DNA of 64,000 nt from Candidatus Moanibacter sp. (GCA_965215885.1 CBDCEW010000099.1:1-64000), one strand, 5' to 3'; positions 2,477-47,870 are shown, numbered from the stretch's first letter. Numbers and translations are program-made. Notes: generated from the letters alone by a model not told the origin.

Positions 2477-3795
2477 CACTACTGTCCGGTTGTTTTTCTA
2501 GGAACGCAGGTTAATCGATTGATAACCAACATTTTACATATGATTTCTGCTGTTTTCGACTTGAAATTGCAAAAAGCCTTGTGGACTCTCAAAAATTTCG
2601 AGGGTCCAAATCATGTATACAGGTCGATTCGTTTTTTCTCAAATCATAGATTATCTTCCGCGCCATCAGTTCCATCGTTGCGTCCAACGCTACGGAGGCG
2701 ACTACAAAGTTCAAAAGTTCAGTTGCTTCGAACAATTTCTCTGCATGGGTTTTGCCGAGTTGACCTACCGGGAGAGTCTGCGCGACATCGAAACCTGCCT
2801 GCGGGCAGTACAACCAAAACTATACCACGCAGGGATTCGAAGCGGAGTATCCAAAAGCACGCTCGCCGATGCCAACGAGAAACGAGACTGGCGCAGCTAC
2901 GCCGACTTTGCACAGGTCCTCATCGCAATGGCTCGTCCTTTGTATTCAAACGAGGATCTGGGCATCGACCTGGACAATACGCTCTACGCTCTGGACTCCA
3001 CCACGATCGATCTATGTCTATCACTCTTCCCGTGGGCACGTTTCCGCAAGCACAAGGGGGCGGTGAAGGTCCATACGCTTCTCGATCTCAGAGGCTCTAT
3101 CCCTTATTTTATCGAGATTACCGATGGAAAAGTTCACGACGTAAACATTCTGGATCTCATCATCCCCGAGGCCGGTGCTTACTATGTAATGGACCGAGCC
3201 TATCTGCATTACGAGCGCCTCTATCGGATCGCACAATGCGGTTCTTTCTTCGTCACACGCGCCCGCCGCGGCTTTCAGTTTCGCCGCCTCTACTCTCAAA
3301 AGGTCGACAAATCAACCGGTCTGCGTTCGGACCAGACCGTTGCCCTGGTCAGCTTCTATCCTGCCAAGGCCTACCCCGAAAGACTCCGGCGTATCACTTA
3401 CCTCGACCCCGACAGTTCCGAGCGCTTCGTGTTTCTCACCAACCAGTTTGCCCTCCCAGCCATAATCATCACCCAGATTTACCGTTTACGCTGGCAGATC
3501 GAATTGTTCTTCAAATGGATCAAACAGCACTTGCGCATCAAGAGCTTTTTCGGCACCTCCGAGAATGCTGTGAAGACTCAAATCTGGATTGCCGTCAGCG
3601 TCTATGTGCTCATCGCCATCATCCGCAAACGCCTTCGCCTGGAGATCAGTTTGCACAAAATCCTACAGATTCTCAGCTTCACCCTATTTGAGAAAACTCC
3701 TATGACTGAACTACTTACAGAAACCGATTACACTTTCAATGAACACCGCATTCCTAAACAGTTGGAGTTGTTTGACTTATAACCGGACAGTACTG
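2477..3795 (+). mobile_element. IS4-family insertion sequence, 1319 bp
   Basis: Terminal inverted repeats CACTACTGTCCGGTT / AACCGGACAGTACTG, with a 9-bp direct repeat ACTTTCGAT at 2468-2476 and 3796-3804. Confidence 0.95.
2613..3782 (+). CDS. IS4-family transposase (DUF4372 + DDE_Tnp_1 type)
   Basis: Motifs ALDSTTIDL, VMDRAY and YRLRWQIELFFKWIKQHL; 389 aa and intact. Confidence 0.95.
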   Translation: MYTGRFVFSQIIDYLPRHQFHRCVQRYGGDYKVQKFSCFEQFLCMGFAELTYRESLRDIETCLRAVQPKLYHAGIRSGVSKSTLADANEKRDWRSYADFAQVLIAMARPLYSNEDLGIDLDNTLYALDSTTIDLCLSLFPWARFRKHKGAVKVHTLLDLRGSIPYFIEITDGKVHDVNILDLIIPEAGAYYVMDRAYLHYERLYRIAQCGSFFVTRARRGFQFRRLYSQKVDKSTGLRSDQTVALVSFYPAKAYPERLRRITYLDPDSSERFVFLTNQFALPAIIITQIYRLRWQIELFFKWIKQHLRIKSFFGTSENAVKTQIWIAVSVYVLIAIIRKRLRLEISLHKILQILSFTLFEKTPMTELLTETDYTFNEHRIPKQLELFDL

Positions 3796-4478: not shown

Positions 4479-4920
4479 CTAGCCCACAAATTTCACAAGC
4501 CATCTGCTTCGACCGCGGATCTCACGGCGCCTCAAGGACTTCCCTTGCCCGCCGACTTCCACGTGTTCCAACACGCTGTCACCCGTCGGACTTTGGTAAG
4601 CCCTTGATCCGCCGCAACCTTCGCAGTCTCGCGACGAAGTGTGTGAAATATGCGGGCTAGTCCGAACAGTTCGCCAAACCATATGCTACGATCCCGGCGT
4701 GCCGGGATCGCCCGCCGTGCTGCGAAAAGGCCTTAATCCGTCCCGGCCCGCCGGGACGCATTCTCGCTACGATGTGTGTGAAATGTCCGGACTAGGGATC
4801 TGTCGGAGTTAGCCCTTCGACCATAAGGCTCAGGACAGGCTTTTCGGAATCCGCGTAAATAATCCGTTATCTGGGTGTGATTGTGCTCTGCAGGGAATTC
4901 GACCACCGACATATTCCTGA
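4479..4920. mobile_element. three abutting MITEs: family A 4479-4660, shortened family A 4657-4795, family B 4792-4920
   Basis: Family A ends read CTAGCCC..A..TTTCACA...TGTGAAAT..CGGGCTAG. Family B ends read CTAGGGATCTGTCGG...CCGACATATTCCT. Neighbouring elements share a CTAG. Confidence 0.75.
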
Positions 4921-4941
4921 TCGCTCTGCCGAGCGGAAGAC

Positions 4942-6485
4942 TCATTTCGTATCCGTGGTATAACGCTCAACAGTAAGCCTGCGATTCGGCTTTCCGGTCG
5001 AAGTGTGCGGAATAGCGGACAAGACCACCACTTTGCGTGGGACTATCTGAGGGGGAAGTTTCCTCCGTGCAGTCGAGAGGAAATTTTTCAATGACCAGGT
5101 ATCCGGATCCTCCGGAACGACAAAGGCCCAGGGCACATGAGTCAGCACTTTCTGGGGGTCGGGAACACCAGCGATCAAATACTCCTTTACCCCTTCGGGT
5201 TGCCCGAGTTCGTTTTCCACTTCGGCCGGAAAATAGGAGTAACCGCCGCAGTTGATCATGTCATCCCGGCGTCCTCGGTAAGCGACAAAGCCATCCTCAT
5301 CGATAAACCCGAAATCCCCGGTGCGAAACCAACCCTTTAGCATCTTCTCCTGGTTGCGCTTCGGATCCTCCCAATAGCTGCCCATTCTCCGGCCCGCGCG
5401 AAGAAGGATTTCGCCCTCCTCGTTTGACCCGAGCAATTGTCCATCGGGGCCGGAGATAGCTACCTTTACCCCCTGGGTGGGTTTTCCCACGGTGTGCAAT
5501 TTGTCCGGATGGGAACGGGCGTCCAGTATAAGGGCCCTCGAGCACTCGGTCAGGCCGTATTGAAAAAAGACATTTGCTCCAGGGAAAAGGCGCAGCAAGA
5601 GGCCCAGCTCCTCCGGAGAGAGCGGCGCACTGGCAATTTCGATTGACCGGCAGCTCTGAGCCATATTCCGGATATTTTCCGGAGGGGTTTGGAGCAAGCT
5701 TCTGATGAGCGGAGGAGTGGTGAAAATCCGTTTATACCAAACCGCTGAATATCCTCAAGGATGGCTGTAACAGTCAATAATCCCTGAGGAAGAACGATGC
5801 AGCCGCCGGATAACAAGGTAGAGGTAACGCGCTGCCAGCCGCCGCTGTGGTTCATCGGACTGAGAATCAACTCCCGATGGTCCTCATCCATGTCTGTTAT
5901 CGAGGAGAGAACCCTGGCAATTTCCAAAAAATGCTCGTGCTTAAGGACAACGCCTTTAGGCTGGCCTGTGGATCCAGCCGAAAAAAGGATGGCGGCGGGA
6001 GTTCCCTCGGAACGGGCCGAACGGTAAATGGGGTCTATAGTAACATGAGCCGGTTCGGGGTCAGGCGTAAAAATCGCCCTCTTCGAAACAACGTCAATGC
6101 TGTAAGTAATCTGGGGGATTGCCGGATTTTCGGACTGGCCTCCGCCCGCCGATAGAAGAGAAAATTTCGGCCTGGTCTTCTTTTCAATATACCGCACACG
6201 CTCCGCTCCCGCATTGGCATCGACAGGGACCGCCAAACACCCGGAAGCGCCCACTGCCAAGAAAGCGATGATATATTCCGGTGAATTTCCCAGGTTCAGA
6301 CCGATTCGATCTCGCGGACCCGCACCGGCGGCACGAAGTAACCGGGCCGTTGCCTCAACCAGTCGACTCAGGTCGCCAAAGGTTAGAACAGCCGTGTCGG
6401 ACTGAATGGCCGGCCGGTCGGAAAATTCAGGTAACCTGGCGGAAATAAGCCGATCGAAGAGATTTTCCGGCAACGTGGAATTCAT
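4942..6485 (-). pseudogene. AMP-dependent acyl-adenylate ligase (ANL superfamily), frameshifted
   Basis: Motifs ILFSAGSTGQPKGV, QYGLTE, FRTGDFG, GRRDDMIN and TSTGKP. The halves join with one extra T at 5723-5726 (GFFTTPPLIRSLLQTPP). Confidence 0.85.
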
Positions 6486-6495
6486 CGGCCAATGA

Positions 6496-6630
6496 TCAGA
6501 AACGGCCGGTCTGGCCGGGAGCGATAAAACGGTCTTCGAGCCGTTTGATTTCCTCGTAACCCACCAAGGAAAAAATCTCGCTCAACGGACATATATCCTT
6601 CTCAACTGAAGCAATTGTCTGTGTTTCGAT
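6496..6630 (-). pseudogene. C-terminal remnant resembling the PEP mutase/isocitrate lyase superfamily
   Basis: Translates IETQTIASVEKDICPLSEIFSLVGYEEIKRLEDRF and ends 10 bp upstream of the ligase start. The 5' part is missing. Confidence 0.35.
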
Positions 6631-6762
6631 CCTCTGCGACATCAAGCCAGATACGTTTGGAGTTGCCGAAGTGTTTCTGGCAAGACTTCAACGATTCCCT
6701 TGTCCCGCTGGGCGCCCGCCCTTCGGCCAGAAGTCCAGCCGGGAATGCGCACACCGTTATCA

Positions 6763-8319
6763 TCAAGATTCGTCAGCCATTCGGACATCGCCGGGAGGGC
6801 ATGCTGGATCATCCCGAGAGAAAGAAACAAACAAAACACCCCGCGGCTTCCGCAGTTCATCGCCTACCGCATCGATGCCGCGGCGGCCGAGTTCGCCAAA
6901 GGCAAATCCATCTTTAATCGTGAACATCAGCGACTCCACTGCGGAGCGATCGCGGCGTGCCTCGCGATACGCCTCGCTCTCCCAGTCCTCGGGGGTGGTC
7001 AACTTCTTGCCCTTCGCCCCACTGATACTGATCTGCTTTACCCCCATGCTCAGCACCTCCTTGCGTCCCTTCGCCGAAGCATATCCGTCATCGGTGCTGA
7101 CCAGTTCAGCAATGACACCGGTGCGCTTGATCGAATCGCCGATGGCCGGCGCCAGCTCAATGGAGTCTGCCGCGTTGCCTTGCGGTACGATCAGGCTGGT
7201 GACAAAACCGTTTTCGCTGCGAACCAGTTGTGGCTTGTACCCGATCACTGGATTGCGGCTGCCCTTCTTGATGTAGGCCGCCGATCCGTCCGAGAGGCTC
7301 AGGACCTTCTGTGTGGACGGTAGCTTCTTTTCGTGAAACACCCGATCATGAGCATACTCAACAACCCGCTTGGCGTCGGCAATATCGCCCCTGATCTGGC
7401 TCAATGCCCGCTCCAGAAGCTCCCGGCGAGTGGGAGGCAGTGAATCCATCGACAGGCCCTCTTCAAGATGGCTCAGTTCCCCCGTTAGTGAGTCGGCCGC
7501 CTTGCGGCCCCGCTTGAGCAACCGCCGGTAGTGTTTCTTCAGCTTGCCCTTCGACTTCGGTTTGCCCGCGGCCAGACAAATCTGAAACTCCAGCTTGTCC
7601 ATTTCCTCCAGCCAACGCCCAACCCATCCCTTGCGAAAATCCTCCAGCCCGAAGACATGCAACTTCTGACCCAAACGATTGGCCCGCATCAAAAGACCGC
7701 TCAGAATCTTCCCATCGGTGGGCCAGCAGCTGTTTGCTTTCACCGAGGTGCTGTCGATCGTCAGCTTCCCGAAATCGTCCCATTGCTCCTGGAGGATAAA
7801 CCCAATCTGTTTATCAAAGATCAACTCGCGGGTCGTATGGCTGACCAGGTTCACGTTCTCCAGAATCGTCGTCACCGCCGGCATTCTCAGTCCCCCGCTC
7901 TGCAAAAATCCGTACAAGCTCATCGACTCGCGCACAAACCGCCGTGCCGGTTTCGTGGTCAACGAACCCAGAAACCCTCGAATCATCACGAACACGTATA
8001 CCGCATAAGCCGGCATCCGCGGCCGGCCTGCCCCAAGATTCAATTCAGCAGCCAGAATATTCTCCTCCTCGATGTCCAGCTCCGGCAGCTCCGCTGTGCG
8101 CCCTTCAAAGAACCTGCGATCTTCCAATCGAAGTTTCTTCTTCTCACGCGCATGGGCGTCCAGATCCTTCTCGATCGCCTCGATGATTTGCGCCGCGAAC
8201 CCGGCCAATTCTTCAACTTCATCCAGAAAATCACGGAAATCCGTGTCTGGAACCGGCAGAATGAGGTTGCTAAGGGGCGTCTTATCGCTTTTGTTCTCCT
8301 CTGTCGCACATGTTGGCAT
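6763..8319 (-). mobile_element. IS5/ISNCY-like DDE transposase, 3'-truncated
   Basis: Motifs IDSTSVKANSCWPTD, KVLSLSD..AYIKKG, STDDGYAS and RSAVESLMFTIK. The sequence turns unrelated after GIDAVGDEL (about 6857). A probable IS end (AGACCTTATCCGAAAAG on minus) lies at CTAG 8462-8465. Confidence 0.8.
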
Positions 8320-8461
8320 GTTTAACTCATTTCTTAATCTTAAGTTGTTAAACACTAGCATGTTGCGACACTCTTTATCAAGCCAAAAAATGATTTTTCT
8401 CAAGTTTTTCTTGCGCCTTTTGCGCCTCTTTGCGGCCAATCAGTAGCTTTTCGGATAAGGT

Positions 8462-9070
8462 CTAGAAAGCGAATCTTCCAACATTCTTACCCTTCTTGCG
8501 AAGCACCTTTCTGCAGAGTTCCCGGAAGCCAAGTTCATCATTACTATTCGTGACTGCTATTCCTGGCTCGACTCCTATTTGAATCACTAGGTGAACTACC
8601 CGAATCGCAGAAAAATCCGGACCTGGCGGAAGTATCGTGATCTCATTTTTAAACCATCCACCTTTCAACATTCTTCAGACGAGTCTGTCCTGGCGGAGAA
8701 ATCACTTTACACGCTAGACGGGTATTTGTCGTACTGGAAAATGGTCAACTGGGATATCGTAGGTTCCCTTCCCACATCCAGAGTGTTAATTGTCAAGACA
8801 TACGAAATAAAACAAAGCCTAAATCGCATCGCGGATTTTCTCGATATCCCTGTGGAGCATCTGAACCAGTCCCGCTCTCACCTTTATCGGGCCAGGAAAA
8901 CATATGGCTTGCTTTCCGAGATCGACAGGGAATTTCTGCAAGAAAAGGCGGACCGACACTGTGCTGCGACGATGGAAAGATATTATCCCGAGATCCGAAA
9001 ACTGGAGGACGCGCGAAAGAGCGACGGTACTCCGCTGGTTACTTCCATTGGAAGATCATCCCTTTCCTAA
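8462..9070 (+). pseudogene. sulfotransferase-family fragment, 5'-truncated with an internal stop
   Basis: The frame reads LESESSN...FPEAKFIITIRDCYSWLDSYLNH*VNYP...LIVKTYEI...IADFLDIP. AKFI..IRD..SW..S is a 3'-PAPS-binding-type motif. TAG at 8588-8590. Confidence 0.65.
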
Positions 9071-10003
9071 CTCCCTTCCCAACCATTTCGGCAGGTAGTG
9101 TAACGTGGCAAAGAGATGGAAGACGTGTGCAATCGGATCGTACCAACGCATACCAAGAGCCTGGCGGGCATAATGTGCGGCCTCCTGAAATTGTTCACGA
9201 CAGAGTAATTGCCTGGCCACGTAGCGGTAGCTTCTGAATATTCTCCAGCGTTTATAGTAGCGTAATTCTCCAGCGGATAATTTTCCGGTGAGCAAGGGAT
9301 GGGAAAATAGCAGATCAATAAATTCGAAATACACATCAGGATTTACGCTATGTTGTTTGGTGAAGTTGCCACCATGTTGGCGGTAGGAGAGAACGGGCGG
9401 CATCCCGATAGGATAGAAAGGGCCAAGCGTCGCAATCTGGGTCCATAATGTCACATCCTGATAAATCTTGAGGTCATTGCGCAACGTCACCTTTTCCAGG
9501 TAACGGCGTCGGATCATGGCGGCGCCCATCGTGCCGATAAAACACCGGCGCAACAGTGTGCGCAATACATCACCGCAATACATAGAACTGGGTTGATACC
9601 AGCGACGGATCGGATTCCCTGCCGTATCAATAATGGATATGGTGCCAAAACACACTGCTGCATCAGTATGATGCTGCATACCTTGATAGAGACGCATAAG
9701 CGCATCCGGTTGGGCGATATCATCAGCATCGATGAAATAAACAAATTCGCCAACGCTAGCTTCGAACCCCGTTGCACGCGCATGCGAACCTCCGGCATTC
9801 GATTGCTGGGTGACTCGGATCCTCGCGTCATTTTCGGCGTATCGATGGGCAATTTCGGCGGTGGCATCCTGAGATCCGTCATCGACGATAAGCATCTCCC
9901 AGTCTGAAAATGTCTGGGACTGGATACTTTCAATAGTGTCGCCGAGGAAACGCTCTGCATTGTATGCGGGAATGAGGACGGAGATGACAGGAGTCGGATG
10001 CAT
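9056..10003 (-). CDS. glycosyltransferase family 2
   Basis: Motifs ISVLIPAYNAE, IVDDGSQDAT and FIDADD (DxD). Confidence 0.92.
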   Translation of the reverse strand: MHPTPVISVLIPAYNAERFLGDTIESIQSQTFSDWEMLIVDDGSQDATAEIAHRYAENDARIRVTQQSNAGGSHARATGFEASVGEFVYFIDADDIAQPDALMRLYQGMQHHTDAAVCFGTISIIDTAGNPIRRWYQPSSMYCGDVLRTLLRRCFIGTMGAAMIRRRYLEKVTLRNDLKIYQDVTLWTQIATLGPFYPIGMPPVLSYRQHGGNFTKQHSVNPDVYFEFIDLLFSHPLLTGKLSAGELRYYKRWRIFRSYRYVARQLLCREQFQEAAHYARQALGMRWYDPIAHVFHLFATLHYLPKWLGRELGKG

Positions 10004-10007
10004 ACGA

Positions 10008-10109
10008 TTAGAAATCTGTCGGAATTCGTTATGCGATTTTGCTGCGCGCTCGGATTATTTGGGTGCATTCGTAGGTCGCGGCCGATTCCACCACCGACAT
10101 CTTCCTAGT
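10008..10109. mobile_element. MITE family B
   Basis: Ends TTAGAAATCTGTCGGA...CCGACATCTTCCTAG. Confidence 0.6.
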
Positions 10110-10315
10110 CGCTCTGCCAGGAGGCAGAGCGACAACATGGGGGTTCGTCGATCGACATTTACAAAACGTGTGGCAGTGGCCAAATCCTAAACAGCAGAAA
10201 TCACCTTGACAAAGAAAATCGCACCGCGCCTTGCCCAGGACCAAGGTTGTCTCCAGGAGAGGACGTTTACACTTTTCGAACAGGCTCAAGTTAGAGACTT
10301 TACTCTTGAAAGCGG

Positions 10316-11674
10316 TCAATCGCGAGCATTTTCGTAGGGATCGGAGAGACGATAGACCTTGTATTCGGGCACTTCGATGCGGTCCCATTCAACCAGATAG
10401 GATCGGTTTTCGCTTTGGAGTATGCGCATGACACTGCTGCGTTTTGAAGCCCGCGAATCGGTAGGGGGCTCAGTCAAAGTCCTCTCGAGCTCGGTAGGCT
10501 CCCAGATTCCGTCGCGATCAGCGAGGGCGAGGCCGAGACTTCGTTGCGGATCGATGTGGTGGTATTCGAGATCCTGTGCGTAGAGCCATGGATGGTTCCA
10601 ATCGACTCCTTCAGATTCCATAAATTCCTCGAGGAGATGCTTTTTGCCTACCCAGTCGAGAATTCCGACAAGCGTCTCGGGTCGGCCACACAGTCCCTGT
10701 AACACCTTATGCCAAAGATCGAGCACGGCATCGGTCTCGCGATCGCGGCCATGAAATTCGGCTTGAGCCAGATCGTAATAGTTCTGAATGAGCTCGACCG
10801 CGTCCTCTTCGTATCCGTCATAGGTTCTGACAAACCAGGGACCCTCTGTTTGGCGGGAAAGCTGCCTGAGAGTGGAGACGGCGTCGGCTAGGACGACAGC
10901 GGGCAAGGCATTCTCTTCAAGGAGGTCGAGGACGAGGGAAGTGGCGCCGATTTTGAGAAAGAGGTTCGAGGGCATGACATTGGTATCGCCATGGAGGACG
11001 TGAAGGCGGCGGTAGCGATTGGGATCCGCGAGGGGCTCGTCGCGCGTGTTGACGATGGCGCGGTTATGTTGCACCCACTGGTAAAAGTCGTTTTCGATAT
11101 AATCGGCTCTCTGGCATATCTGGTAGGGAGTTGAAACCTCGAGATCATTAGGACCGTCTCGATAATTGAGAATGTGTGCGGCACCCACTCTACCGGCTCC
11201 CGTAAAAAGCACCCGCAGGGTTTGGAAGGCGAGCAGAGAAAGGACATTCTCTTCCGTTAAGGGGGCCGACCGGTCTATGAGATAATTCTCATGGCATCCG
11301 AATGTGGCCTGCGTGTAATGGTCAATATTGTTACGAAAGAACTGCACTCTACCGGCGAGTCCAAGTTCATCGACGGCCTTCAACAAGAGCAGATCGCCCG
11401 CTCGATCGTAGCGCACAACATCACGGAGACCGGCGCATTCCGGAGTACAGAATTCAATATGCCCCATATCGATATAGAGGCGGCCGCCATTGTAGAGGAA
11501 GCCGCCATTTCCAGGCGGTTCATCCCAGCCACGAGGGTGAAGATCAATAAGACCGAATTGCCGATTGTCGAAAAACCAGTCTCGAATTCTTCTAAGGACG
11601 GGGCTCTCGGAGAGCTCCTCTTCGACCAGGCAACCGTATTCAGTTTCGAGGCCGATGATGCGAGGATAGAGCAT
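10316..11674 (-). CDS. pafA: Pup/UBact-protein ligase (PafA family)
   Basis: Motifs RIIGLETEYG, NGGRLYIDMGHIEFCTPEC, TFGCHENYL, NTRDEPLAD..YRRLHV and DLEYH. Confidence 0.9.
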   Translation of the reverse strand: MLYPRIIGLETEYGCLVEEELSESPVLRRIRDWFFDNRQFGLIDLHPRGWDEPPGNGGFLYNGGRLYIDMGHIEFCTPECAGLRDVVRYDRAGDLLLLKAVDELGLAGRVQFFRNNIDHYTQATFGCHENYLIDRSAPLTEENVLSLLAFQTLRVLFTGAGRVGAAHILNYRDGPNDLEVSTPYQICQRADYIENDFYQWVQHNRAIVNTRDEPLADPNRYRRLHVLHGDTNVMPSNLFLKIGATSLVLDLLEENALPAVVLADAVSTLRQLSRQTEGPWFVRTYDGYEEDAVELIQNYYDLAQAEFHGRDRETDAVLDLWHKVLQGLCGRPETLVGILDWVGKKHLLEEFMESEGVDWNHPWLYAQDLEYHHIDPQRSLGLALADRDGIWEPTELERTLTEPPTDSRASKRSSVMRILQSENRSYLVEWDRIEVPEYKVYRLSDPYENARD

Positions 11675-12394
11675 TTATAGGAGACTGGAGTCGAGGCGGC
11701 GGTAGCGTGCCGTTTCCGCGGAATCGCGATCCAGGAGCGCGGCTTCGACGCTCTTGCCTGGAATCTGCAGGAGCCGTTTCCTGGGGGTTTTGATCGTTTC
11801 CACGGACTGCTCTCCAACGATTCCCTGCCAGAGTGTGAGGCAGAGCGAGATTGCCCGATCGAGTCCGTCATGCGGACGCAATTTTCCGGTCAACCAACGG
11901 GAGGCCTCCTGGGCCAGATCATAATTAGTATAGGCTACGAGGACGCCGCCGGGCTCGTAAGAGGGAGTGCCATCAAATTGGAGCCTGACAAGGACATCCT
12001 CCTCAAGGCGCGGGCCGACTTCAGCGAAGATACTGTCTACAATGAGGGGAGGAGCGAATATTTTTTCAAAACTGTCTTTGAGAAGCGGACACAAAGCGAA
12101 GTTTATCAAGCGCCGAAGAATCACATCCTCTGGCGAGCGCTGAAATCCCTCCGTATGGGCGGCTTCGATGGCAGTCTGGCGAAGCTTCTCGATGTCGACC
12201 GGATTTCCGAGGGCGCAATAGCCCAACCGGTCGTAGATTTCGAAGACCTTGGAGTTTCCAGCCCCTACACCGAGAAGAAGCACGCCTTCGGGACGGGAGA
12301 GGGCAAAGACAGGTGTGCCACCCCGCATTTGGTCTTCAATGTACTCCCGGCGATTTTGAATGGCTTCCAGCCATCGATACGGTTCTTCAAGCAT
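11675..12394 (-). CDS. prcA: 20S proteasome alpha subunit
   Basis: Motifs RREYIEDQMRGGTPV, KVFEIYDRL..ALG and RSPEDV; it lies between prcB and pafA. Confidence 0.88.
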   Translation of the reverse strand: MLEEPYRWLEAIQNRREYIEDQMRGGTPVFALSRPEGVLLLGVGAGNSKVFEIYDRLGYCALGNPVDIEKLRQTAIEAAHTEGFQRSPEDVILRRLINFALCPLLKDSFEKIFAPPLIVDSIFAEVGPRLEEDVLVRLQFDGTPSYEPGGVLVAYTNYDLAQEASRWLTGKLRPHDGLDRAISLCLTLWQGIVGEQSVETIKTPRKRLLQIPGKSVEAALLDRDSAETARYRRLDSSLL

Positions 12395-12403
12395 GGATTA
12401 TGA

Positions 12404-13159
12404 TCATATTGCGGCGGTCCAGAGGTCTCGTTGTTCTTGTTCGCTTACGGTTTGGATGCCTTCGGGGGAGAGCAATTTTATGGTTCCGAATTGATCTCTA
12501 TCCGGCTGAACACCACCGGTTGCGGTATCAAATTCCGAAGCGGTCATGAGCAATCGGTTTGCGAAATTCACTGCCTCGGCCAAGGGCATATGGGCGGGTT
12601 TAGGACTACCCCATTGTTCGTTGAAATGGAGGACACTTTTGATGCTTGTGGCGCCCGATCCGGCTCCGGCATAGTTGGCAGCTTCAAAATTGGCACCGAG
12701 AGGATCGTAGAAATAAATGACTGGGTTGGGATCCGGTTTTTCGGGCTCGAGCCCGGCAAAGATCGGTGCGACCGCTCCGATTCCCTGGAGAGTGGCAGGG
12801 AGATTCTCCCGAAGAAGCCGGGAGATAGCGCGTGTCTTGGCCAGGAGACTCATTGTCTGCAGTTGGCTGCGCCGGTAAAATTCGAACGCAGTCTGAAGGG
12901 TACGCGTCATTTCGAAGGCGATGGCCGGCGAACCTGCGATAGCCATGAGAGAATGGGAGTCTAATTCCAGAATTTTCTCGGTCTTATCGGAGAAGATAAG
13001 ATTTCCGCTGGTGGCCCGATGGTCTCCGGCAAAGAGAACACCGTCCGCGCAGTGAAAGGCAAAAACGGTAGTGGCTTCGAGCTGTAAAGCCTTCGGATCG
13101 AGTTTCTCCAGATGGGGAAAGGAGGATTCAGGTAGGAGTTCTAGAAAGTCGCCTTTCAT
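12404..13159 (-). CDS. prcB: 20S proteasome beta subunit (Ntn threonine protease)
   Basis: A 29-aa propeptide precedes TTVFAF..DGVLFAGDHRATSGN; further motifs IAGSPA, GAGSG and DTATGG. Confidence 0.92.
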   Translation of the reverse strand: MKGDFLELLPESSFPHLEKLDPKALQLEATTVFAFHCADGVLFAGDHRATSGNLIFSDKTEKILELDSHSLMAIAGSPAIAFEMTRTLQTAFEFYRRSQLQTMSLLAKTRAISRLLRENLPATLQGIGAVAPIFAGLEPEKPDPNPVIYFYDPLGANFEAANYAGAGSGATSIKSVLHFNEQWGSPKPAHMPLAEAVNFANRLLMTASEFDTATGGVQPDRDQFGTIKLLSPEGIQTVSEQEQRDLWTAAI

Positions 13160-13335
13160 TCTCCGGTCCTTTGCCGGTAGCGACGCGCCTGTTCAGGATC
13201 TACCTTTCGCATTCGTTTAAGGAGATCTCTTGTATCCGGTTTCTCGACCTTGGGCGATTGGGGTCCTTCGTCGTCGCCACCACCGCCCCCTGGATTTGGA
13301 CTCGCTGGCTTTGTTTTTCGAATTGGATCTGGCAT
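13156..13335 (-). CDS. ubact: UBact ubiquitin-like modifier, 59 aa (not in the ORF track)
   Basis: MPDPIRKTKPASPNPGGGGGDDEGPQSPKVEKPDTRDLLKRMRKVDPEQARRYRQRTGE*. It has an AGGAG RBS 7 nt upstream, its stop overlaps the prcB ATG (ATGA), and the C-terminal RTGE is the UBact signature. Confidence 0.93.
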   Translation of the reverse strand: MPDPIRKTKPASPNPGGGGGDDEGPQSPKVEKPDTRDLLKRMRKVDPEQARRYRQRTGE

Positions 13336-13477
13336 AATAATCTCCTGGTAGGAATTGAACTATGGACTATCGAGTGCGTTGCCCTGCAATCGCGCTCGCA
13401 CCTGTGTAAAAGTATTTAGAAGACACCGCACTAGTTTAGCATAGCCGCATACAAAGTAAAGAGTAAGGATGTCCTAC

Positions 13478-13672
13478 GGGTGCAGTAGCCCATCCCACGG
13501 TTCCACACGGTGGACGATGGATGAAGGAGGGAAGCTCAACTGAGACTGTATTCGAGCTGGGGACCGGTGATCGCAGGCAGGCACAGTGGGATGGGGCGAA
13601 GCCCGCCGTGGGAGAGAATCCAGAAGAAAAGCCCACGGATGCAGTAGCCATCCCACGGTTCCACACGGTGGG
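13478..13672. repeat. REP/BIME-like repeat, about 157-bp period
   Basis: TGCAGTAGCCATCCCACGGTTCC occurs twice with an inverted partner CAGTGGGATGGGGCGAAGCCC between. It is near-identical to 47589-47870. Confidence 0.85.
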
Positions 13673-14223
13673 CGATAGGAGAAGGATCAAAGGATTCGGG
13701 CGAATGGGAGGTGGGCTAAATCCTCAATGCGGTTCGCGGCTTCGATTGCGTCCAGGCCGATTCTCACCTGATGGGTATCGAATAGGTCGGAAAGGTTCAG
13801 CTCAATCACTTTAGAATCGCCCTTTAAACGCACGAAGTCCCATTGCGCTCCATCGACACGAGAGCCGAATTGGATGAAGGAGGGAAGCTCAACTGAGACT
13901 GTATTCGAGCTGGGGACCGGTGATCGCAGGCAGGCACAGTGGGATGGGGCGAAGCCCGCCGTGGGTGAGAATCCAGAAGAAAAGCCCACGGATGCAGTAG
14001 CCATCCCACGGTTCCACACGGTGGGCGATAGGAGAAGGATCAAAGGATTCGGGCGAATGGGAGGTGGGCTAAATCCTCAATGCGGTTCGCGGCTTCGATT
14101 GCGTCCAGGCCGATTCTCACCTGATGGGTATCGAATAGGTCGGAAAGGTTCAGCTCAATCACTTTAGAATCGCCCTTTAAACGTACGAAGTCCCATTGCG
14201 CTCCATCGACACGAGAGCCGAAT
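13518..14223. repeat. 353-bp tandem duplication covering the dop 3' end and the REP-like element
   Basis: 13518-13870 matches 13871-14223 at offset 353. I found two substitutions: GGGAGAGA/GGGTGAGA and AACGCACG/AACGTACG. Confidence 0.92.
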
Positions 14224-15505
14224 TTCTCAATACACCGTCCACGCACGGCGGCGCGGGTGGTTTTCATTGGATCTCCAGTAAACCGTAGAAAAGGCCTTCT
14301 TTCTTATCTAAGCGATGGTAAGAGAGATCAAGGCTTCGCAGCCACGGATCTTCCGGCTTTAGTTTCTCCGACTCTCTAAACGATTCGATCAACTGATACT
14401 TGGCACTCCAGTCAAGCCGGTCGGCGGTGGATAGCGGATCCGCCTTCAAATCATCCAGGACAGTTGCCCAGGCTTCAACGAGCCGCTGCCACGGAGCGTC
14501 AAGGTTGGGCAGAAACTCCCGCACGAGATCCAGATAACGCCTTTGGACTGATATGGCAGTAGCCTCTTTTTCGCCTTCCACGGGTAGGTGCCAGCAGCGA
14601 CTCGGGTCCCGCGAGACCGCCTTGAGGGAATATAAGGGATCCACGAGTCGTGGTATTCTGTCGAGGGGGGCGCGATTGACGAGAGCTTGCAGGACAAGTG
14701 CGGTACTTCCGACTTTGAGCCAGGTCGCAAACGGAGACATGTTTGCATCTCCGATTATAACGTGGAATCGGCGGTATTTTTCGGGATTGGCGTGTGGTTC
14801 GTCCCGAGTATTGACGATAGGTCGCCGCTGCATCGTATCGACGCTTTGGATTACGGAAAAGAAATCGCTCCGCTGGGAAATCTGAAAGCCGGTTTTCAGA
14901 AAACGGTCCTCTTCCTCCCAACCGAATTTACCGGCGCCGCAAAAGACCTGTCGGGTGACAAGAAAGGCGAGAGTTCCACAGGCCAGGGTATCCCATGGGA
15001 GAATACGCGGGAGTAAGTAGTTTTCATGACACCCGTAGCTGTGTCCCTGAAAATCGCTGTTGTTCTTGAAAAGAATGACGGGATTATCGGTACCTTGGTT
15101 AATGGTTCGCGCACATGACATAAGGACTTCGTCACCGGCGAAATCCTGTTGCAGGAGTTCAAAAAGATTGCTGCATTCCGGCGTACAATACTCCGGATGG
15201 GCATGATCGTTGTAAAAGCGAGCACCGTTTTTGAGAACGTAATCGCTCTTGATTTCTCTATTTGACAAACTACGCGACGCGTCTTGAGCGAAGTATTCCG
15301 CTTCGTCTGAATCCTGCTTCAGTTCCTTAACTCGAAATCCCCTCGCATCGAGATGCGGATCCTCGAAGTTATAATCCCATCGCAGCCTTACCCCCTCCGC
15401 GGTGGCGCTGCGAACCAGCCCAATGGATTCCGCTACGACATCAATTCCCTCCGGGTTCTGCCGAGTGATTCCGATCTCATTTTCGAGTCCAAATTGTATA
15501 TCCAT
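14040..15505 (-). pseudogene. dop: Dop depupylase/deamidase homolog, split near 14265
   Basis: Motifs FGLENEIGI, NGARFYNDHAHPEYCTPEC, SYGCHENYL and NTRDEPHA. The ORF stops at GLFYGLLEIQ*; the natural tail TTRAAVRGRCIEKF...AQWD continues in another frame (14040..14267). Confidence 0.85.
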
Positions 15506-15713
15506 TTTCGAAAGCTGGTTTCTTCACCGTTACTACTGTAAGAGCTGGCTAATCCCGCGCAAGCGCGGTCCTACAAATCCTTCTTTGTGCACAACTCTAT
15601 GATCGTCCTCATGATTCGGCAACTTTCGAGAACGATATGTGAACTGGTTCTGCCTTACGACAGAGATTGAGATCAGTCGGGTTCTCGGCGAGAGAGAGGA
15701 TTTTGGAGCAGAA

Positions 15714-17450
15714 TTATATAGCGGCTGTTTTAGAGGCGGAATGGCCCGTGCGGTAGGGCTGGAGATGGATGACGTTGGAGGGGTCGAAATCGGTCAATTT
15801 TAACCAGTCCTCGGTTAAATCACTGGGTGGAAAGAGCTCGTTCTCAGCATATTCAAGATCAAGAGCGTCGAGGAGATCCTGGCGGGAGATGGCGGATTCA
15901 CTCTCTTCCAGGACCGAGCGTTTGATGGCCAAACCCTTGGCGCGCTCAATGATTGCAGCAATGATGGCGCCACTTGCGATTCCTCCACGATAGACGTAGT
16001 CGCGTCGCCCGCTCCGAAAGGTGATCTCAAGAAAGCGGTTGGCTTCAGTCTCTGCGTAATGGGCGTTCACTGCTGCGCTAATAAGGGTGTCGCGCGATTC
16101 CGAGAGGGGTAGCTCATCGGAAAGATAAATGCGGTAGATCTCCTCACCGGCCGCCTTGTCGGGACGGCGAACACGGATTTTTCTATCGATGCGGCCGGGC
16201 CGAAGAATAGCCGGGTCGATGAGGTCGGCTCGATTGGAAGCGAGTATGACAACGACGTTTTCGAGGGGTTCGATACCGTCCATCTCCGCGCAGAACATGG
16301 GAACCAGCGTCGTTAGGATACTCGAGCCGGAGCGGTAGGCACCACGAGTGCCGAGTATGGAATCGGCCTCGTCGATGAAGAGAAAAGCGAGTTCGCCTTC
16401 AGCTACCTTTTCGCGACACTGGGCAAAGAGGTCGCGCACCTGGCGTTCGGACTCACCCAGCCACATATTGAGAATTTCCGGGCCCTTGACATGGAGAAAA
16501 AATTCCGGGCGATCCTCGCCTGATTTCTCGCGGATCTGGAGCCGGAGGTTATGAGCGGTAGCTCGACCGATAAGGGTTTTGCCACATCCGGGAGGGCCGT
16601 AGAGCAAAAACCCCTTGGGAACCGGATGGTTGAATTTCTTGAAGAGGTGAGCGTGCAGATAGGGCAGTTCTATGGTATCGCGTATCGCCTCAATCGCTTC
16701 TTTCTGCCCACCGACGGCGCTCCATGGAACGGAGGGCAAAGTCGAGAGAGTGTGGTCGAGGCGCTTTGCCTGGGAGAGGATTTCCACAACGACGCGGTGA
16801 TTAGCATCCAGCCTCACTTCGAGCCCAGCTTTGAGTTTCTCCTTATAGAGAAGGGAAGATCTTACGACCACAATGTCCGACACCCCGTGCTCCGATCCCA
16901 CCCTCAATCGGCCATCTGGGAGCGTCTCACTGATGCGAACAATGGGACCGCTCTTGTCGTAACCAAACGAGTCGACGATGGCAAACGCTTCATTGAGGAC
17001 AACGTGCATACCCGTTTCGAGAACCGCATTCGGTAGTGAGGGAGCTAACGAGCAGACGTAGTCGGTTCCGTTGACGCAGACCATGGCGCGATCTTCCTTT
17101 ATACGACGCAGGAGAGTACCGAGCCGGAGGGCGGGCGATTGCAGTTTGTCCACCGCGGTGCTAAGTTGCTCGATGGCCGATGTAGCCTGGTCCTGCAGCT
17201 CTTCCATCTCCTCAATGCGTGCACGCAATATATCGAGTGTTTCTTTATCGGACCCCGACTGAGCCAGCCTGTGCGAGATGAGGTCAAAGAGTTGGAGGGT
17301 GGAGAGCGATTGGAGAAGTTCCAGGGGCGCAAACTCTTCGGATTCGGTCTCCACCGGAATATCCGAAGATGGAGAAACATCCCTTGGGTCCAATTTCAGC
17401 TTCTTTTTTCCCACGCCGCAAATCTTAGTTGAGGATGTGAAAAAGTCCAA
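15714..17450 (-). CDS. arc: proteasome-associated AAA+ ATPase (ARC/Mpa)
   Basis: N-terminal coiled coil and OB-like region, Walker A GPPGCGKT, KGPEILNMWLGESERQVR, FIDEAD and ASNRADLIDPAILRPGRID. The start is uncertain. Confidence 0.92.
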   Translation of the reverse strand: MDFFTSSTKICGVGKKKLKLDPRDVSPSSDIPVETESEEFAPLELLQSLSTLQLFDLISHRLAQSGSDKETLDILRARIEEMEELQDQATSAIEQLSTAVDKLQSPALRLGTLLRRIKEDRAMVCVNGTDYVCSLAPSLPNAVLETGMHVVLNEAFAIVDSFGYDKSGPIVRISETLPDGRLRVGSEHGVSDIVVVRSSLLYKEKLKAGLEVRLDANHRVVVEILSQAKRLDHTLSTLPSVPWSAVGGQKEAIEAIRDTIELPYLHAHLFKKFNHPVPKGFLLYGPPGCGKTLIGRATAHNLRLQIREKSGEDRPEFFLHVKGPEILNMWLGESERQVRDLFAQCREKVAEGELAFLFIDEADSILGTRGAYRSGSSILTTLVPMFCAEMDGIEPLENVVVILASNRADLIDPAILRPGRIDRKIRVRRPDKAAGEEIYRIYLSDELPLSESRDTLISAAVNAHYAETEANRFLEITFRSGRRDYVYRGGIASGAIIAAIIERAKGLAIKRSVLEESESAISRQDLLDALDLEYAENELFPPSDLTEDWLKLTDFDPSNVIHLQPYRTGHSASKTAAI

Positions 17451-17585
17451 ACCAATCTTATTGCGTAGAGAGGTCTTGACTAGGCATTTGCATGTTGTTT
17501 AATGACGCTCCTTCAATCGCAGACTTCGAATTGCCTTCGGAAGCTGTGGTCTAAGGAAATCTGAGAAATTCATTGGAGTATAACT

Positions 17586-17888
17586 ATGGCTTACGTAATT
17601 ACGGGTCTCTGTGTTGATTGTAAATATACAAGCTGTGCGGCAGTATGTCCGGTGGAAGCGTTTCACGAGACGCCGGATCGGCTCTACATTAACGCCGATA
17701 CTTGCATTGACTGTGACCTCTGCGTGCCGGAATGTCCGGTCGAAGCTATTTTTCAGGACTCCGATGTACCTGATGAATATGAAGAATGGATCGCATTGAA
17801 CGAAACCGAAGCGGAAAACTTTCCCATCATTAATGAAGAGAAAGAACCCTTGAAAGGTCCGAAATGCGTCGATTCCAATGCGGCCTGA
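17586..17888 (+). CDS. ferredoxin (FdxA-like dicluster)
   Basis: Motifs CVDCKYTSCAAVCPVEAF and CIDCDLCVPECPVEAI. Confidence 0.93.
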   Translation: MAYVITGLCVDCKYTSCAAVCPVEAFHETPDRLYINADTCIDCDLCVPECPVEAIFQDSDVPDEYEEWIALNETEAENFPIINEEKEPLKGPKCVDSNAA

Positions 17889-17998
17889 GAAGGGCGGAAT
17901 CGGAGGGTTCAAGGGTTGTTGCCCAGCTGCTCGACCATCGACTACGATTATGACGACGAGCTACGATCGCATAATGAGCCGATCGCCAGTCGAAATTC

Positions 17999-18060
17999 GT
18001 GATCTTAATTCGAAATTGGAAGATCGACGGGAGATCACGATTGAGAGTCACGATGAGAGA
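17999..18060. repeat. dispersed intergenic repeat; inverted copy at about 31737-31798
   Basis: GTGATCTTAATTCGAAATTGGAAGATCGACGGGAGATCACGATTGAGAGTCACGATGAGA nearly equals the reverse complement of 31737-31798. Confidence 0.75.
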
Positions 18061-36193: not shown

Positions 36194-37924
36194 TCAGAAT
36201 CCCTTCTGTTTGTCATAGACGTTGCGGTAGAGGGGGCAGCGGTCGTATAGATCCCGATGGGTGCCCTTGTCGATCATACGGCCGGCGTCAAAGACGAGAA
36301 TCTCGTCGACAAGCTGAATGGTGCTGAAGCGGTGAGCGATGATGAATACAGTTTTGCCCAGGAGGAGCTTCTGGAGGGCTCGTTGGACAAAGCTCTCGCT
36401 TTCCGAATCGAGGGCGGAGGTGGCTTCGTCGAGTATCAGTATCGGTGCATCCTTGAGAAATGCCCGCGCAAGGGCGATGCGTTGAATCTGACCACCGGAA
36501 AGCCGAGTTCCGCGATCACCGACCACGGTGTGATAGCCGTCTTCCATATTTTCGATGAAACCGTCAGCGTAGGCATTGTGGGAAGCGTCGAAAATCTCCT
36601 GTTCGGTGGCTTCGGGACGGCTCAACAGGATGTTGTTATAGATGGTGTCGTCAAAGAGAACAGGATCCTGCGCGACAAGAGCGATTTGTCGGCGTAGTCC
36701 TGATAGTTGGATACCCCGAAGGTCGTGGCCGTCGAGCTTAATGGCGCCTGAGTTGATTTCGTATAACCGTAGCAGGAGGTTAATAAATGTAGATTTTCCT
36801 GCGCCACTTGGTCCAACCAGGGCATACGCTTTGCCCGCTTCCAGGGCACAGTTTAAATCTTTCAAAACAGGTGCGTTCCCGTAGCGGAAATTGACGTCGA
36901 CGAGGCCGAATTCTCCTTTGCAGGAATTCAGGGGAATGGCGTCCGGTCGGTCCTGAATCACCACCGGTTCTTGAATGATCTCCTCCATCCGCTCCAGGGA
37001 AGCGAGGCCCCGTTTCAATTCACCACTCACCACGCCCAGTTTCTTAACCGGATCGTAGGCGAAATAGAGCGCAATAACAACCGGTATGACATCATTCAAC
37101 GTCACACCGACACGTCGTGCGTAAAAGATGGCCAGGGCGATCCCCACTGATGTGATAAATTCGATACTGGGAGTTATCGCTTTGAGATGCTTGACCACGA
37201 CAATTTGCAGATCGAGGTATTTTCGGACGAGGGTTGCGAATGCCGTCTGCTGTTGACTCCCAAGATCGAAAGCGCGCACATCTTTGGCGGCGGACAGGTT
37301 TTCCCGCACGAATTCTGTCACGGCGCCGAGTTCCCGCTGCATATCTCTGGCCCGCAAATGAAGCTTTCTGGCGATGAAGCGGATGGGAAAGACGCAAACC
37401 GGCACCATGAGAAGAAAGAGGAGAACTATCCCGATTCCCTTGGTGACAAAGGCCATCCATATAAGGAAGGAAATAGATGCGAGGAGGGTAATCGGTTGAA
37501 TGATGAGATCGTTGGAAACGCGGATAATCGTCTCCTGAAGAATCTGCGTATCATTCATGGTGCGGCTGAGAAGATCCCCGGCGCTATGCCTCTCGAAGAA
37601 ACTGAGGTGCAGTTCCTGCAGCTTGCGAAACATTTGCAGGCGCATTTTTTCAAGAATCCGGACGCCGCAATAAGCGATGAGATAGGCATTGGCAAATCCG
37701 GCAAGAGAACGAATAGCGAAGGCGAGGGGAAGTTGACCGACGATGAGGAAGAGTACCCAGTTTGTGACTTCCAATTCTCCGTAGAGTTTGGGTAGAATCT
37801 CTCTCAGAACATAGGCGAGACCGAAGCCACTCATACCGGCGTATACGAGGCCACAGGCGAGCGCGCCAAAAAAGTGAATTTTCAGCGTATTGAGGAGCGC
37901 AAAATATGGCAGGAGCTTCTTCAC
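36194..37924 (-). CDS. msbA: MsbA-like ABC exporter
   Basis: TMD plus NBD (GPSGAGKST, LSGGQ, ILDEATSALD) within an LPS gene cluster. Confidence 0.8.
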   Translation of the reverse strand: MKKLLPYFALLNTLKIHFFGALACGLVYAGMSGFGLAYVLREILPKLYGELEVTNWVLFLIVGQLPLAFAIRSLAGFANAYLIAYCGVRILEKMRLQMFRKLQELHLSFFERHSAGDLLSRTMNDTQILQETIIRVSNDLIIQPITLLASISFLIWMAFVTKGIGIVLLFLLMVPVCVFPIRFIARKLHLRARDMQRELGAVTEFVRENLSAAKDVRAFDLGSQQQTAFATLVRKYLDLQIVVVKHLKAITPSIEFITSVGIALAIFYARRVGVTLNDVIPVVIALYFAYDPVKKLGVVSGELKRGLASLERMEEIIQEPVVIQDRPDAIPLNSCKGEFGLVDVNFRYGNAPVLKDLNCALEAGKAYALVGPSGAGKSTFINLLLRLYEINSGAIKLDGHDLRGIQLSGLRRQIALVAQDPVLFDDTIYNNILLSRPEATEQEIFDASHNAYADGFIENMEDGYHTVVGDRGTRLSGGQIQRIALARAFLKDAPILILDEATSALDSESESFVQRALQKLLLGKTVFIIAHRFSTIQLVDEILVFDAGRMIDKGTHRDLYDRCPLYRNVYDKQKGF

Positions 37925-47550: not shown

Positions 47551-47588
47551 AAGCTTCCGGCTGAGAAGGAATCGAAGGAGGTTGCCCG

Positions 47589-47870
47589 CGGGTGCAGTAG
47601 CCATCCCACGGTTCCATACGGTGGACGATGGATGAAGGAGGGAAGCTCAACTGAGACTGTATTCGAGCTGGGGCTTGCAGTTGCCGGCAGGCACGGTGGG
47701 ATGGGGCGAAGCCCACGGTGGGAGAATATCCAGAAGAAAAGCCCACGGGTGCAGTAGCCATCCCACGGTTCCTCGCGGTGGACGATGGATGAAGGAGGGA
47801 AGCTCAGCTGAGACTGTATTCGAGCTGGGGACTGGTAGTATCCGGCAGGCACAGTGGGATGGGGCAAAGC
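47589..47870. repeat. REP/BIME-like tandem repeat, about 157-bp unit, 1.8 copies
   Basis: GGGTGCAGTAGCCATCCCACGGTTCC..CGGTGGACGATGGATGAAGGAGGGAAGCTCA occurs twice; same family as 13478-13672. Confidence 0.85.

Follow-up and report, generated by a model that had tools for sequence, protein, structure and literature searches.

A UBact-type tagging and 20S proteasome locus with an interrupted dop in a draft genome of Candidatus Moanibacter sp.

Can a bacterium that carries every part of a Pup-like protein tagging system next to a 20S proteasome be expected to tag, degrade and de-tag its proteins, if its de-tagging gene appears broken and its proteasomal ATPase ends without the tail known from mycobacteria? 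This question is raised by a stretch of Candidatus Moanibacter sp. (GCA_965215885.1 CBDCEW010000099.1:1-64000), one strand of 64,000 nt that we refer to as the window, in which positions 10316-17450 carry, in minus-strand order, arc, dop, UBact, prcB, prcA and pafA. All six are present, and the locus is very likely a Verrucomicrobiota operon for Pup-like tagging of the UBact type with a 20S proteasome, which would probably work like the actinobacterial Pup-proteasome system. Systems of this kind are already known, and both Pfam and NCBIfam have a model for UBact. The nearest homologous records are named as Opitutaceae and Verrucomicrobiota, and these names are the sole basis for the phylum given here.

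A sequence-only reading of the window had proposed the order arc-dop-UBact-prcB-prcA-pafA on the minus strand. This order was borne out, and the limits given for the operon are the ends of open reading frames. The same reading had treated dop as a single gene, which proved incorrect, as it consists of a 413-aa frame (14264-15505) and a 75-aa frame (14040-14267), overlapping in ATGA. Downstream, the stop codon of UBact overlaps the prcB start (also ATGA), prcB and prcA are separated by 9 bp, and prcA and pafA abut, so that the last four genes are tightly coupled.

The tag, the Pup-ligase-family enzymes and the 20S core

The UBact gene (13156-13335, minus strand), with AGGAG 6 nt ahead of its ATG, encodes 59 aa ending in RYRQRTGE. 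Its product passed the cut-offs of both dedicated models, PF20513 (80.6 bits, cut-off 27.8) and NF033388 (86.7 bits, cut-off 35), and no Pfam model other than PF20513 matched it at E values up to 0.01. The tag end RYRQRTG[EQ] was found in 13/13 Verrucomicrobial genomes and in 36/36 further loci; the last residue was Glu in seven and Gln in six of the 13 genomes, the window's being Glu, and the further loci had eight Glu and 28 Gln. The tag also fits the R-[TS]-G-[EQ] end motif reportedly given by Lehmann et al. in 2017. Tags ending in G-[EQ] are described in passages of Iyer et al. 2008 (PMC2588565). Since the window's UBact ends in Glu, the deamidase step should not be needed for tagging.

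The two Pup-ligase-family enzymes could be told apart by alignment extent, insertion and phylogeny. The 413-aa N-terminal piece of dop (14264-15505, minus strand) comprises a large carboxylate-amine-ligase-like domain with a Dop-type N-terminal insertion, and matched Pup_ligase with 418.8 bits over model positions 3-391 of 441. It scored 368.8 bits with the Dop model TIGR03688, without reaching its cut-off of 492.3, vs 286.3 bits with the PafA model TIGR03686, which aligned from residue 69 onward only; this late start fits the extra N-terminal loop of Dop. P0001, an intact close homolog of the split gene, gave 321 bits to Acidothermus Dop (4b0r) vs 214 to PafA. The gene at the operon end (10316-11674, minus strand; 452 aa) lacks the Dop-type insertion and covers nearly all of Pup_ligase (358.7 bits, model positions 1-440 of 441). 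It aligned at full length to residues 10-460 of PafA (4b0t), and to Dop from residue 59 only. Its TIGR03686 score of 261.3 bits did not reach the cut-off of 551.3, and the Dop model gave a marginally better score, 272.2 bits, over a stretch that was shorter. In a tree of 95 rows, made up of 62 genes from dop positions, 31 from pafA positions and the two of the window, the 452-aa protein fell into a clade with all 31 of the 31 pafA-position genes (support 100), and the dop N-piece was sister to the dop of the nearest related genome, G006 (support 98). Both enzymes keep the conserved cradle-loop aspartate that passages of PMC3511204 propose as the catalytic base, at D69 in the PafA-type protein and at D100 in Dop, where it is invariant in 32 relatives.

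The proteasome subunits had been predicted to match proteasome hidden Markov models. This held for the beta subunit, PrcB (12404-13159, minus strand; 251 aa), which matched PF00227 with 84.3 bits, and less clearly for the alpha subunit, PrcA (11675-12394, minus strand; 239 aa), which had no Pfam match and reached 61.6 bits with TIGR03691, under the cut-off of 139. PrcB matches the Rhodococcus and Mycobacterium tuberculosis beta subunits among sequences from the PDB. It has a 29-aa propeptide followed by T30, which aligns with the first residue of the mature beta chain of Rhodococcus (1q5q_H), and the ATT at this cleavage site is kept in relatives. Thr1, Asp17 and Lys33 are the residues expected for activity in proteasome beta subunits; the equivalents in PrcB, by alignment to 1q5q_H and 2h6j_H, are T30, D46 (+16) and K62 (+32). 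A PF00227 search of the 90%-complete genome to which the window belongs (G000) returned prcB as the sole match and no HslV-type match; the same search gave matches in 10 of 14 control genomes, including Escherichia coli and Bacillus subtilis.

For PrcA, the identification comes from pairwise alignment and from structure prediction. The protein matched M. tuberculosis PrcA in the PDB with an E value of 2e-10. A model built from 32 relatives (predicted local distance difference test, pLDDT, 92; predicted template modelling score, pTM, 0.90) had chains of the M. tuberculosis proteasome as its best fold matches, with E values of about 3e-15 and template modelling (TM) scores of 0.72-0.84. PrcA K49 aligns with Lys52 of the M. 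tuberculosis activator pocket and is invariant in 32/32 relatives, and the position beside the Arg26 equivalent is Lys or Arg in 25/32. The N-terminus, M-x-E-E-P-Y-R-W-L-E-A, is nearly invariant in the 32 relatives, and its residues are unlike those we take to be the gate residues of M. tuberculosis.

With these parts, a cycle can be proposed whose steps we draw from passages of the Pup review PMC3511204. PafA would phosphorylate the side chain of the C-terminal Glu of UBact and join this Glu to substrate lysines; a hexamer of ARC would likely bind the tag, unfold the tagged protein and feed it through to the PrcA/PrcB core, where proteolysis would be carried out by PrcB Thr30, and Dop would normally take the tag off. 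As for the proposal that a tagging and degradation pathway operates in this organism, it gains from the parts and expected active residues, which are kept, and loses from the disruption of dop in the assembly and from an ATPase that lacks the GQYL tail.

The ARC ATPase and its C-terminal tail

The first gene of the operon (15714-17450, minus strand) encodes an ARC/Mpa-like proteasomal AAA ATPase of 578 aa; its start codon, TTG, is uncertain, and conservation starts near residue 12-45. The protein has the Pfam domains Prot_ATP_ID_OB_N, OB_C and AAA, scored 412.5 bits with TIGR03689 (below the cut-off of 504.75), and aligned to residues 61-599 of the 609-aa Mpa (7px9) with an E value of 5e-98. 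Its architecture is that of Mpa/ARC, namely a coiled coil, a double OB, the AAA domain and a C-terminal beta-grasp. The Walker A (G285-T292) and Walker B (I359-A362) motifs and the pore loop M329-W330-x-G332 are invariant in 29 relatives.

ARC ends in ...SKTAAI at Mpa residue 599, and the last ten residues of Mpa, including GQYL, are therefore absent. Passages of PMC12288473 and PMC9599533 describe GQYL as essential for gate opening in mycobacteria, with Tyr608 and the Leu609 carboxylate of Mpa contacting Arg26/Glu119 and Lys52 of the alpha subunit. A different kind of ending is shared by the relatives of the window's ARC in a survey that covered Verrucomicrobiota loci. Small-aliphatic tails were present in 9/9 Verrucomicrobial ARCs first examined (eight relatives and the window), and in 80 closed C-termini of further loci the last residue was Val in 45, Ile in 34 and Arg in one, with Tyr in either of the last two positions in 0/80. 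The tail was visible in 79 of the 80 loci tabulated; that of L078 runs off its contig.

The conserved tail and the invariant lysine of the alpha pocket suggest that the ARC end is a 20S-docking tail of another spelling. We tentatively propose, as a possibility that we rate below even chances, that Verrucomicrobial UBact systems dock and open the 20S particle through a tyrosine-free ATPase code, [G/S/A]-[aliphatic or T/A]-[I/V]-COOH.

The interrupted dop and the dop-UBact spacer

The N-terminal frame of dop stops after 413 aa (...GLLEIQ), and the ATG of the 75-aa frame overlaps this stop, with GGAG 5 nt upstream. The short frame (14040-14267, minus strand) aligns to residues 434-506 of P0001 and has weak matches to the ends of Pup_ligase and TIGR03688. 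P0001, the nearest whole Dop, is 506 aa long and 97% identical; its residues 413-433 are missing from the window, and the pieces are otherwise 95-96% identical to it (96% for the N-piece). The lesion lies at 14265-14271, where the window has seven letters vs 62 in related strains, a net loss of 55 bp. All four near-identical public sequencing runs, from three studies and represented by one contig each, carry the 62 letters in place of the window's seven, and an A plus these 62 letters make 21 codons, so that the form seen in the runs keeps a single frame. The unbroken allele, sought as DNA, had 0 matches in a pattern scan of metagenome contigs.

A single chain of about 500 aa is the usual form of Dop. 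The best 120 homologs have 500-677 aa, vs 413 and 75 aa for the frames of the window, and dop is in one piece in 9/9 other Verrucomicrobial loci and in 53 of 55 further loci with room for it. The two exceptions are L094, with a frameshift near residue 50, and L098, in which the alignment is merely shorter. The interrupted gene at L094:9606-11103 lies on a contig of a Verrucomicrobiae metagenome-assembled genome, and its frame change may be a sequencing error. Five genomes with a dispersed layout each have two full Pup_ligase genes, and no second dop was found in the window's own assembly, which is 90.3% complete.

The cut falls at the junction of two domains of about 400 and about 70 residues, a division that passages of PMC3511204 describe for Dop and PafA. 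The 21 lost residues include the invariant P418 and P432 and a conserved LPYP, and in a model of P0001 the lost segment is ordered, with a local pLDDT of 83-95 in a model whose overall value is only 75. An ordered segment with two invariant prolines suggests that its deletion would cost Dop its function. In the ligase-family tree, the terminal branch of the N-piece is 0.20 long vs 0.31 for its G006 sister; the branch thus shows no excess in rate, which would make the lesion a recent one. According to passages of PMC3511204, corynebacteria keep dop for de-tagging; with dop kept elsewhere and a tag that ends in Glu, the lesion, if real, would touch de-tagging and not tagging. Taken at face value, dop would have been disrupted recently and specifically in this strain, with de-tagging probably crippled and tagging and degradation left intact. 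A general link between a Glu-ended UBact and the loss of dop was considered and rejected, as other Glu-ended loci keep a whole dop.

The spacer between dop and UBact is also unusual, as a dispersed repeat and a 353-bp duplication bring it to 704 bp, where the median of 36 relatives is 55 bp. Tandem Repeats Finder reported the duplication at 13518-14224 (period 353, 2.0 copies, 99% identical, score 1400); the two 353-bp copies together take in the final ~180 nt of dop and the greater part of the spacer. They are distinguished by the letters at 14184 and 13966, and the runs agree with the promoter-distal copy there (4/4 runs and two runs, respectively). A copy of the dispersed repeat, a lineage-specific unit of ~140 nt with inverted ends, occupies 13473-13686 within the spacer, and the duplication has produced a second, partial copy at 13871-14039. 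No run contig spans the duplication junction at 13871/13872; contigs break in the repeat at high depth, and a contig of run X3 ceases to fit exactly at 13871.

The repeat itself was found at 56 loci on 33 contigs of the organism's own genome, and a comparison gave 51 matches in G000 and 0 in 20 relatives. It also occurs in the window at 47584-47870, is intergenic, and is sometimes arranged in tandem with a period of ~158 bp. Its inverted ends read …CCCACGG…CCATCCCACTGT… / …ACAGTGGGATGG…CCGTGGG…, and it looks like a miniature inverted-repeat transposable element or a repetitive extragenic palindromic (REP)-like element. A structured RNA was considered and rejected, given few compensatory pairs in the alifold consensus and 18 paired vs 12 unpaired cases for the pair chosen by eye. 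Rfam had no match in 10000-18000, the repeat included, at E values up to 1; the RNA fold of the single-copy dop-UBact spacer was not notable (z -1.12), and scans for promoters and terminators stayed at chance level (6 found vs 5.2 expected, and 7 vs 7.6).

Alternative readings, distribution and significance

How far the locus may be read as a working copy of a known system depends on what it shares with the described ones. The M. tuberculosis cluster mpa-dop-pup-prcB-prcA-pafA has the same six roles and order, homologous enzymes and a Thr1 protease, and the actinobacterial Pup system shares with the window an ARC with double OB, AAA and C-terminal beta-grasp and a tag ending in G-[EQ]. In contrast to that system, the window's tag belongs to the UBact and not the Pup family, its short beta propeptide (29 aa) has Ala instead of Gly as the last residue, its ARC stops ten residues before the end of Mpa, without GQYL, and its enzymes fall below the NCBI equivalog cut-offs. 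Passages of PMC3511204 describe the PupE of the Corynebacterium glutamicum type, which, like the window's tag, is made ligation-competent and needs no deamidation; corynebacteria lack prcBA, whereas the window has it, and the window's dop is disrupted, not whole. The closest likeness is to the UBact clusters of Gram-negative phyla, conjugation-proteasome loci reportedly described, and their tag named, by Lehmann, Udasin, Livneh and Ciechanover in 2017 (BBRC 483:946). The window agrees with them in tag family (PF20513/NF033388), RYRQRTG[EQ] end, gene order and phylum, and differs in its dop in two frames and its dop-UBact spacer of 704 bp, vs the median of 55 bp.

Several observations weigh against taking the locus as a working Pup-like tagging and proteasome operon. 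Every mechanistic step is taken over by homology to Actinobacteria, and the scores of all enzymes below the actinobacterial equivalog cut-offs mark these proteins as diverged relatives and not close orthologs. Of 401 genomes sampled from the phylum, 11, the window's included, had a match above the cut-off of the UBact model, a rarity that makes the system dispensable for most relatives. The missing GQYL makes coupling to the 20S particle less certain than in mycobacteria, and the form of dop in the window is itself in question, as its seven-letter junction appears in 0/4 runs and run X1, which matches the window letter for letter across 3.7 kb of flanking sequence, nevertheless has an unbroken dop. 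The tail bears on a reading in which tagging is uncoupled from the proteasome, so that the ATPase would act alone as an unfoldase or de-tagging helper and UBact would mainly be a regulatory mark. The end of the Mpa alignment at residue 599 of 609, the 0/80 relatives' C-termini with Tyr in the last two places, the essential role of GQYL in mycobacteria (passages of PMC12288473 and PMC9599533) and the existence of pupylation without a proteasome in corynebacteria (passages of PMC3511204) would all fit it. We consider this reading quite improbable, given that UBact, prcB, prcA and pafA are translationally coupled, with arc linked to them in 22/48 loci; that the character of the tail is conserved, with Ile or Val last in 79/80; that the alpha-pocket lysine is invariant in 32/32; and that the beta-grasp region, which passages of PMC9599533 describe as also touching the 20S particle in Mpa, is conserved in ARC. 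A tag-and-degrade operon with a differently spelled docking tail therefore stays our preferred reading.

The state of dop allows further readings, which differ in whether the break exists in the organism and in what it would do there. It is possible, though we would not bet on it, that the split, and perhaps the duplication, is an assembly artefact and that the organism has a whole 506-aa dop and the full cycle of tagging, degradation and de-tagging. The window's junction is present in none of the four runs and the unbroken form in all. Between X1 and the window, not one letter differs in 4904-6851, 11403-12594 and 12596-13166, two differ in 14272-18048, and two differences plus an indel fall within 13886-14272, a clustering with a probability near 0.005 by a Poisson estimate. 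The local differences of the runs (13966, 14184 and the indel) thus lie in one ~400-bp block whose second copy has the alleles of the runs, a pattern that would be expected from two strain variants laid in tandem; the fit of the X3 contig ends at the duplication junction, and the genome is a 105-contig draft with 90.3% completeness and 5.47% contamination. Set against this, the duplication junction shares at most 1-2 letters with either side, so that a k-mer graph would have needed reads to form it, a 55-bp loss with seven replaced letters is atypical of base-calling error, and a split in a nearby AMP-binding gene is confirmed by an independent contig, which indicates that the assembly is not generally indel-ridden in this region. 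The pattern of differences fits a genuine rearrangement at this site as well as the tandem assembly of two strain variants, and we treat the dop break, the duplication and the repeat as strain-level features of uncertain reality. Were the break real, a working two-chain Dop, with the 413-aa catalytic domain and the 75-aa C-domain translationally coupled and reassembling, would be suggested by the position of the break at the domain boundary (passages of PMC3511204, and the model), by the ATGA overlap with GGAG 5 nt upstream and by two frames that are otherwise open and 95-96% identical to P0001. This is unlikely in view of the absence of another two-piece dop among the 120 best homologs, the 9/9 loci and the 53/55 loci (that of L094 being frameshifted), of the invariant or conserved and confidently ordered residues that were deleted (P418, P432, LPYP), and of an ATG that derives from the seven junction letters, so that the arrangement looks accidental. 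The same break could instead be the first visible step in the loss of a whole locus that is decaying and inactive in this strain. The patchiness of the system (3/31 genomes of the order, 11/401 of the phylum sample), the coincidence of repeat invasion, duplication and deletion at the locus and the insertion sequence (IS) elements 2-8 kb downstream lend this some colour; five other genes that are open, full length and with their catalytic residues, a dop branch without rate excess and near-identical strains that keep the locus with few differences make it very improbable. We therefore return to an operon in which tagging and degradation would be intact, with de-tagging probably impaired if the lesion is real.

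Across the phylum, the system is scarce and its layout modular. In the sample of the order, three of the 31 genomes had dop. A pattern scan of species genomes gave 571 matches, 562 of which encode ARC relatives, and the best 80 of these 562 are almost all from Verrucomicrobiota. The canonical order was present in 8/13 Verrucomicrobial genomes including the window (7 of the 12 others) and in 22 of the 48 further loci whose flanks were long enough; in the other layouts, arc-dop, UBact-prcBA and pafA lie apart. In the nearest related genome (G006; loci L009 and L010, C1:816000-843500), about 25 kb separate dop from UBact-prcB-prcA-pafA, and this interval is home to genes for giant surface proteins (immunoglobulin, cadherin and laminin-G), which run on the opposite strand. 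Contigs from metatranscriptome run X4 cover the UBact/prcB junction and an unbroken-form dop, which is a weak hint of expression, DNA carry-over being possible.

Lipopolysaccharide (LPS) genes, which the sequence-only reading had listed for the genome, were found in the window. A single 655-aa frame at 37921-39888 on the minus strand combines an acyltransferase domain of lipid A biosynthesis with a heptosyltransferase domain of family 9, and there are further heptosyltransferases and an MsbA-like ABC transporter. The signature protein of the Planctomycetes-Verrucomicrobia-Chlamydiae (PVC) group that the sequence-only reading had listed was not identifiable among the window genes by Pfam or NCBIfam. 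The split AMP-binding gene (acyl-CoA synthetase-like, minus strand) consists of frames at 4942-5697 (251 aa, C-terminal) and 5550-6485 (311 aa, N-terminal), and its frameshift is not specific to the assembly, the X1 contig being letter-identical over 4904-6851. An IS element at 6852-8463, with a DDE transposase (6763-8439), has a depth of 400-1400 in the runs, whose contigs break at both of its ends. Two more transposase genes are located at 2613-3782 and 62358-63167 (DDE_Tnp_1 and IS66).

Pup-type conjugation in verrucomicrobia was noted in 2008 (passages of PMC2588565) and again in 2020 (passages of PMC7947786). In the literature searched, as judged by titles and abstract openings, the word 'UBact' mostly has other meanings and no experiment on the UBact protein was found, which agrees with the earlier statement that UBact is known from bioinformatics alone. 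As one more copy of a catalogued system, the locus by itself adds little. The points on the ARC tail and on dop could help bench study of UBact. The absence of tyrosine from the ARC tail sets the class as a whole apart and merits one bench test, of whether the tail docks and how, and a tyrosine-free code, if true, would add a third spelling to the HbYX motif of archaea and eukaryotes and the mycobacterial GQYL. Should the dop lesion be real, the strain would offer a natural experiment on UBact tagging in a cell whose eraser enzyme is not whole, and the whole and interrupted forms of dop in near-identical strains with a Glu-ended tag would form a natural pair for asking what de-tagging contributes.

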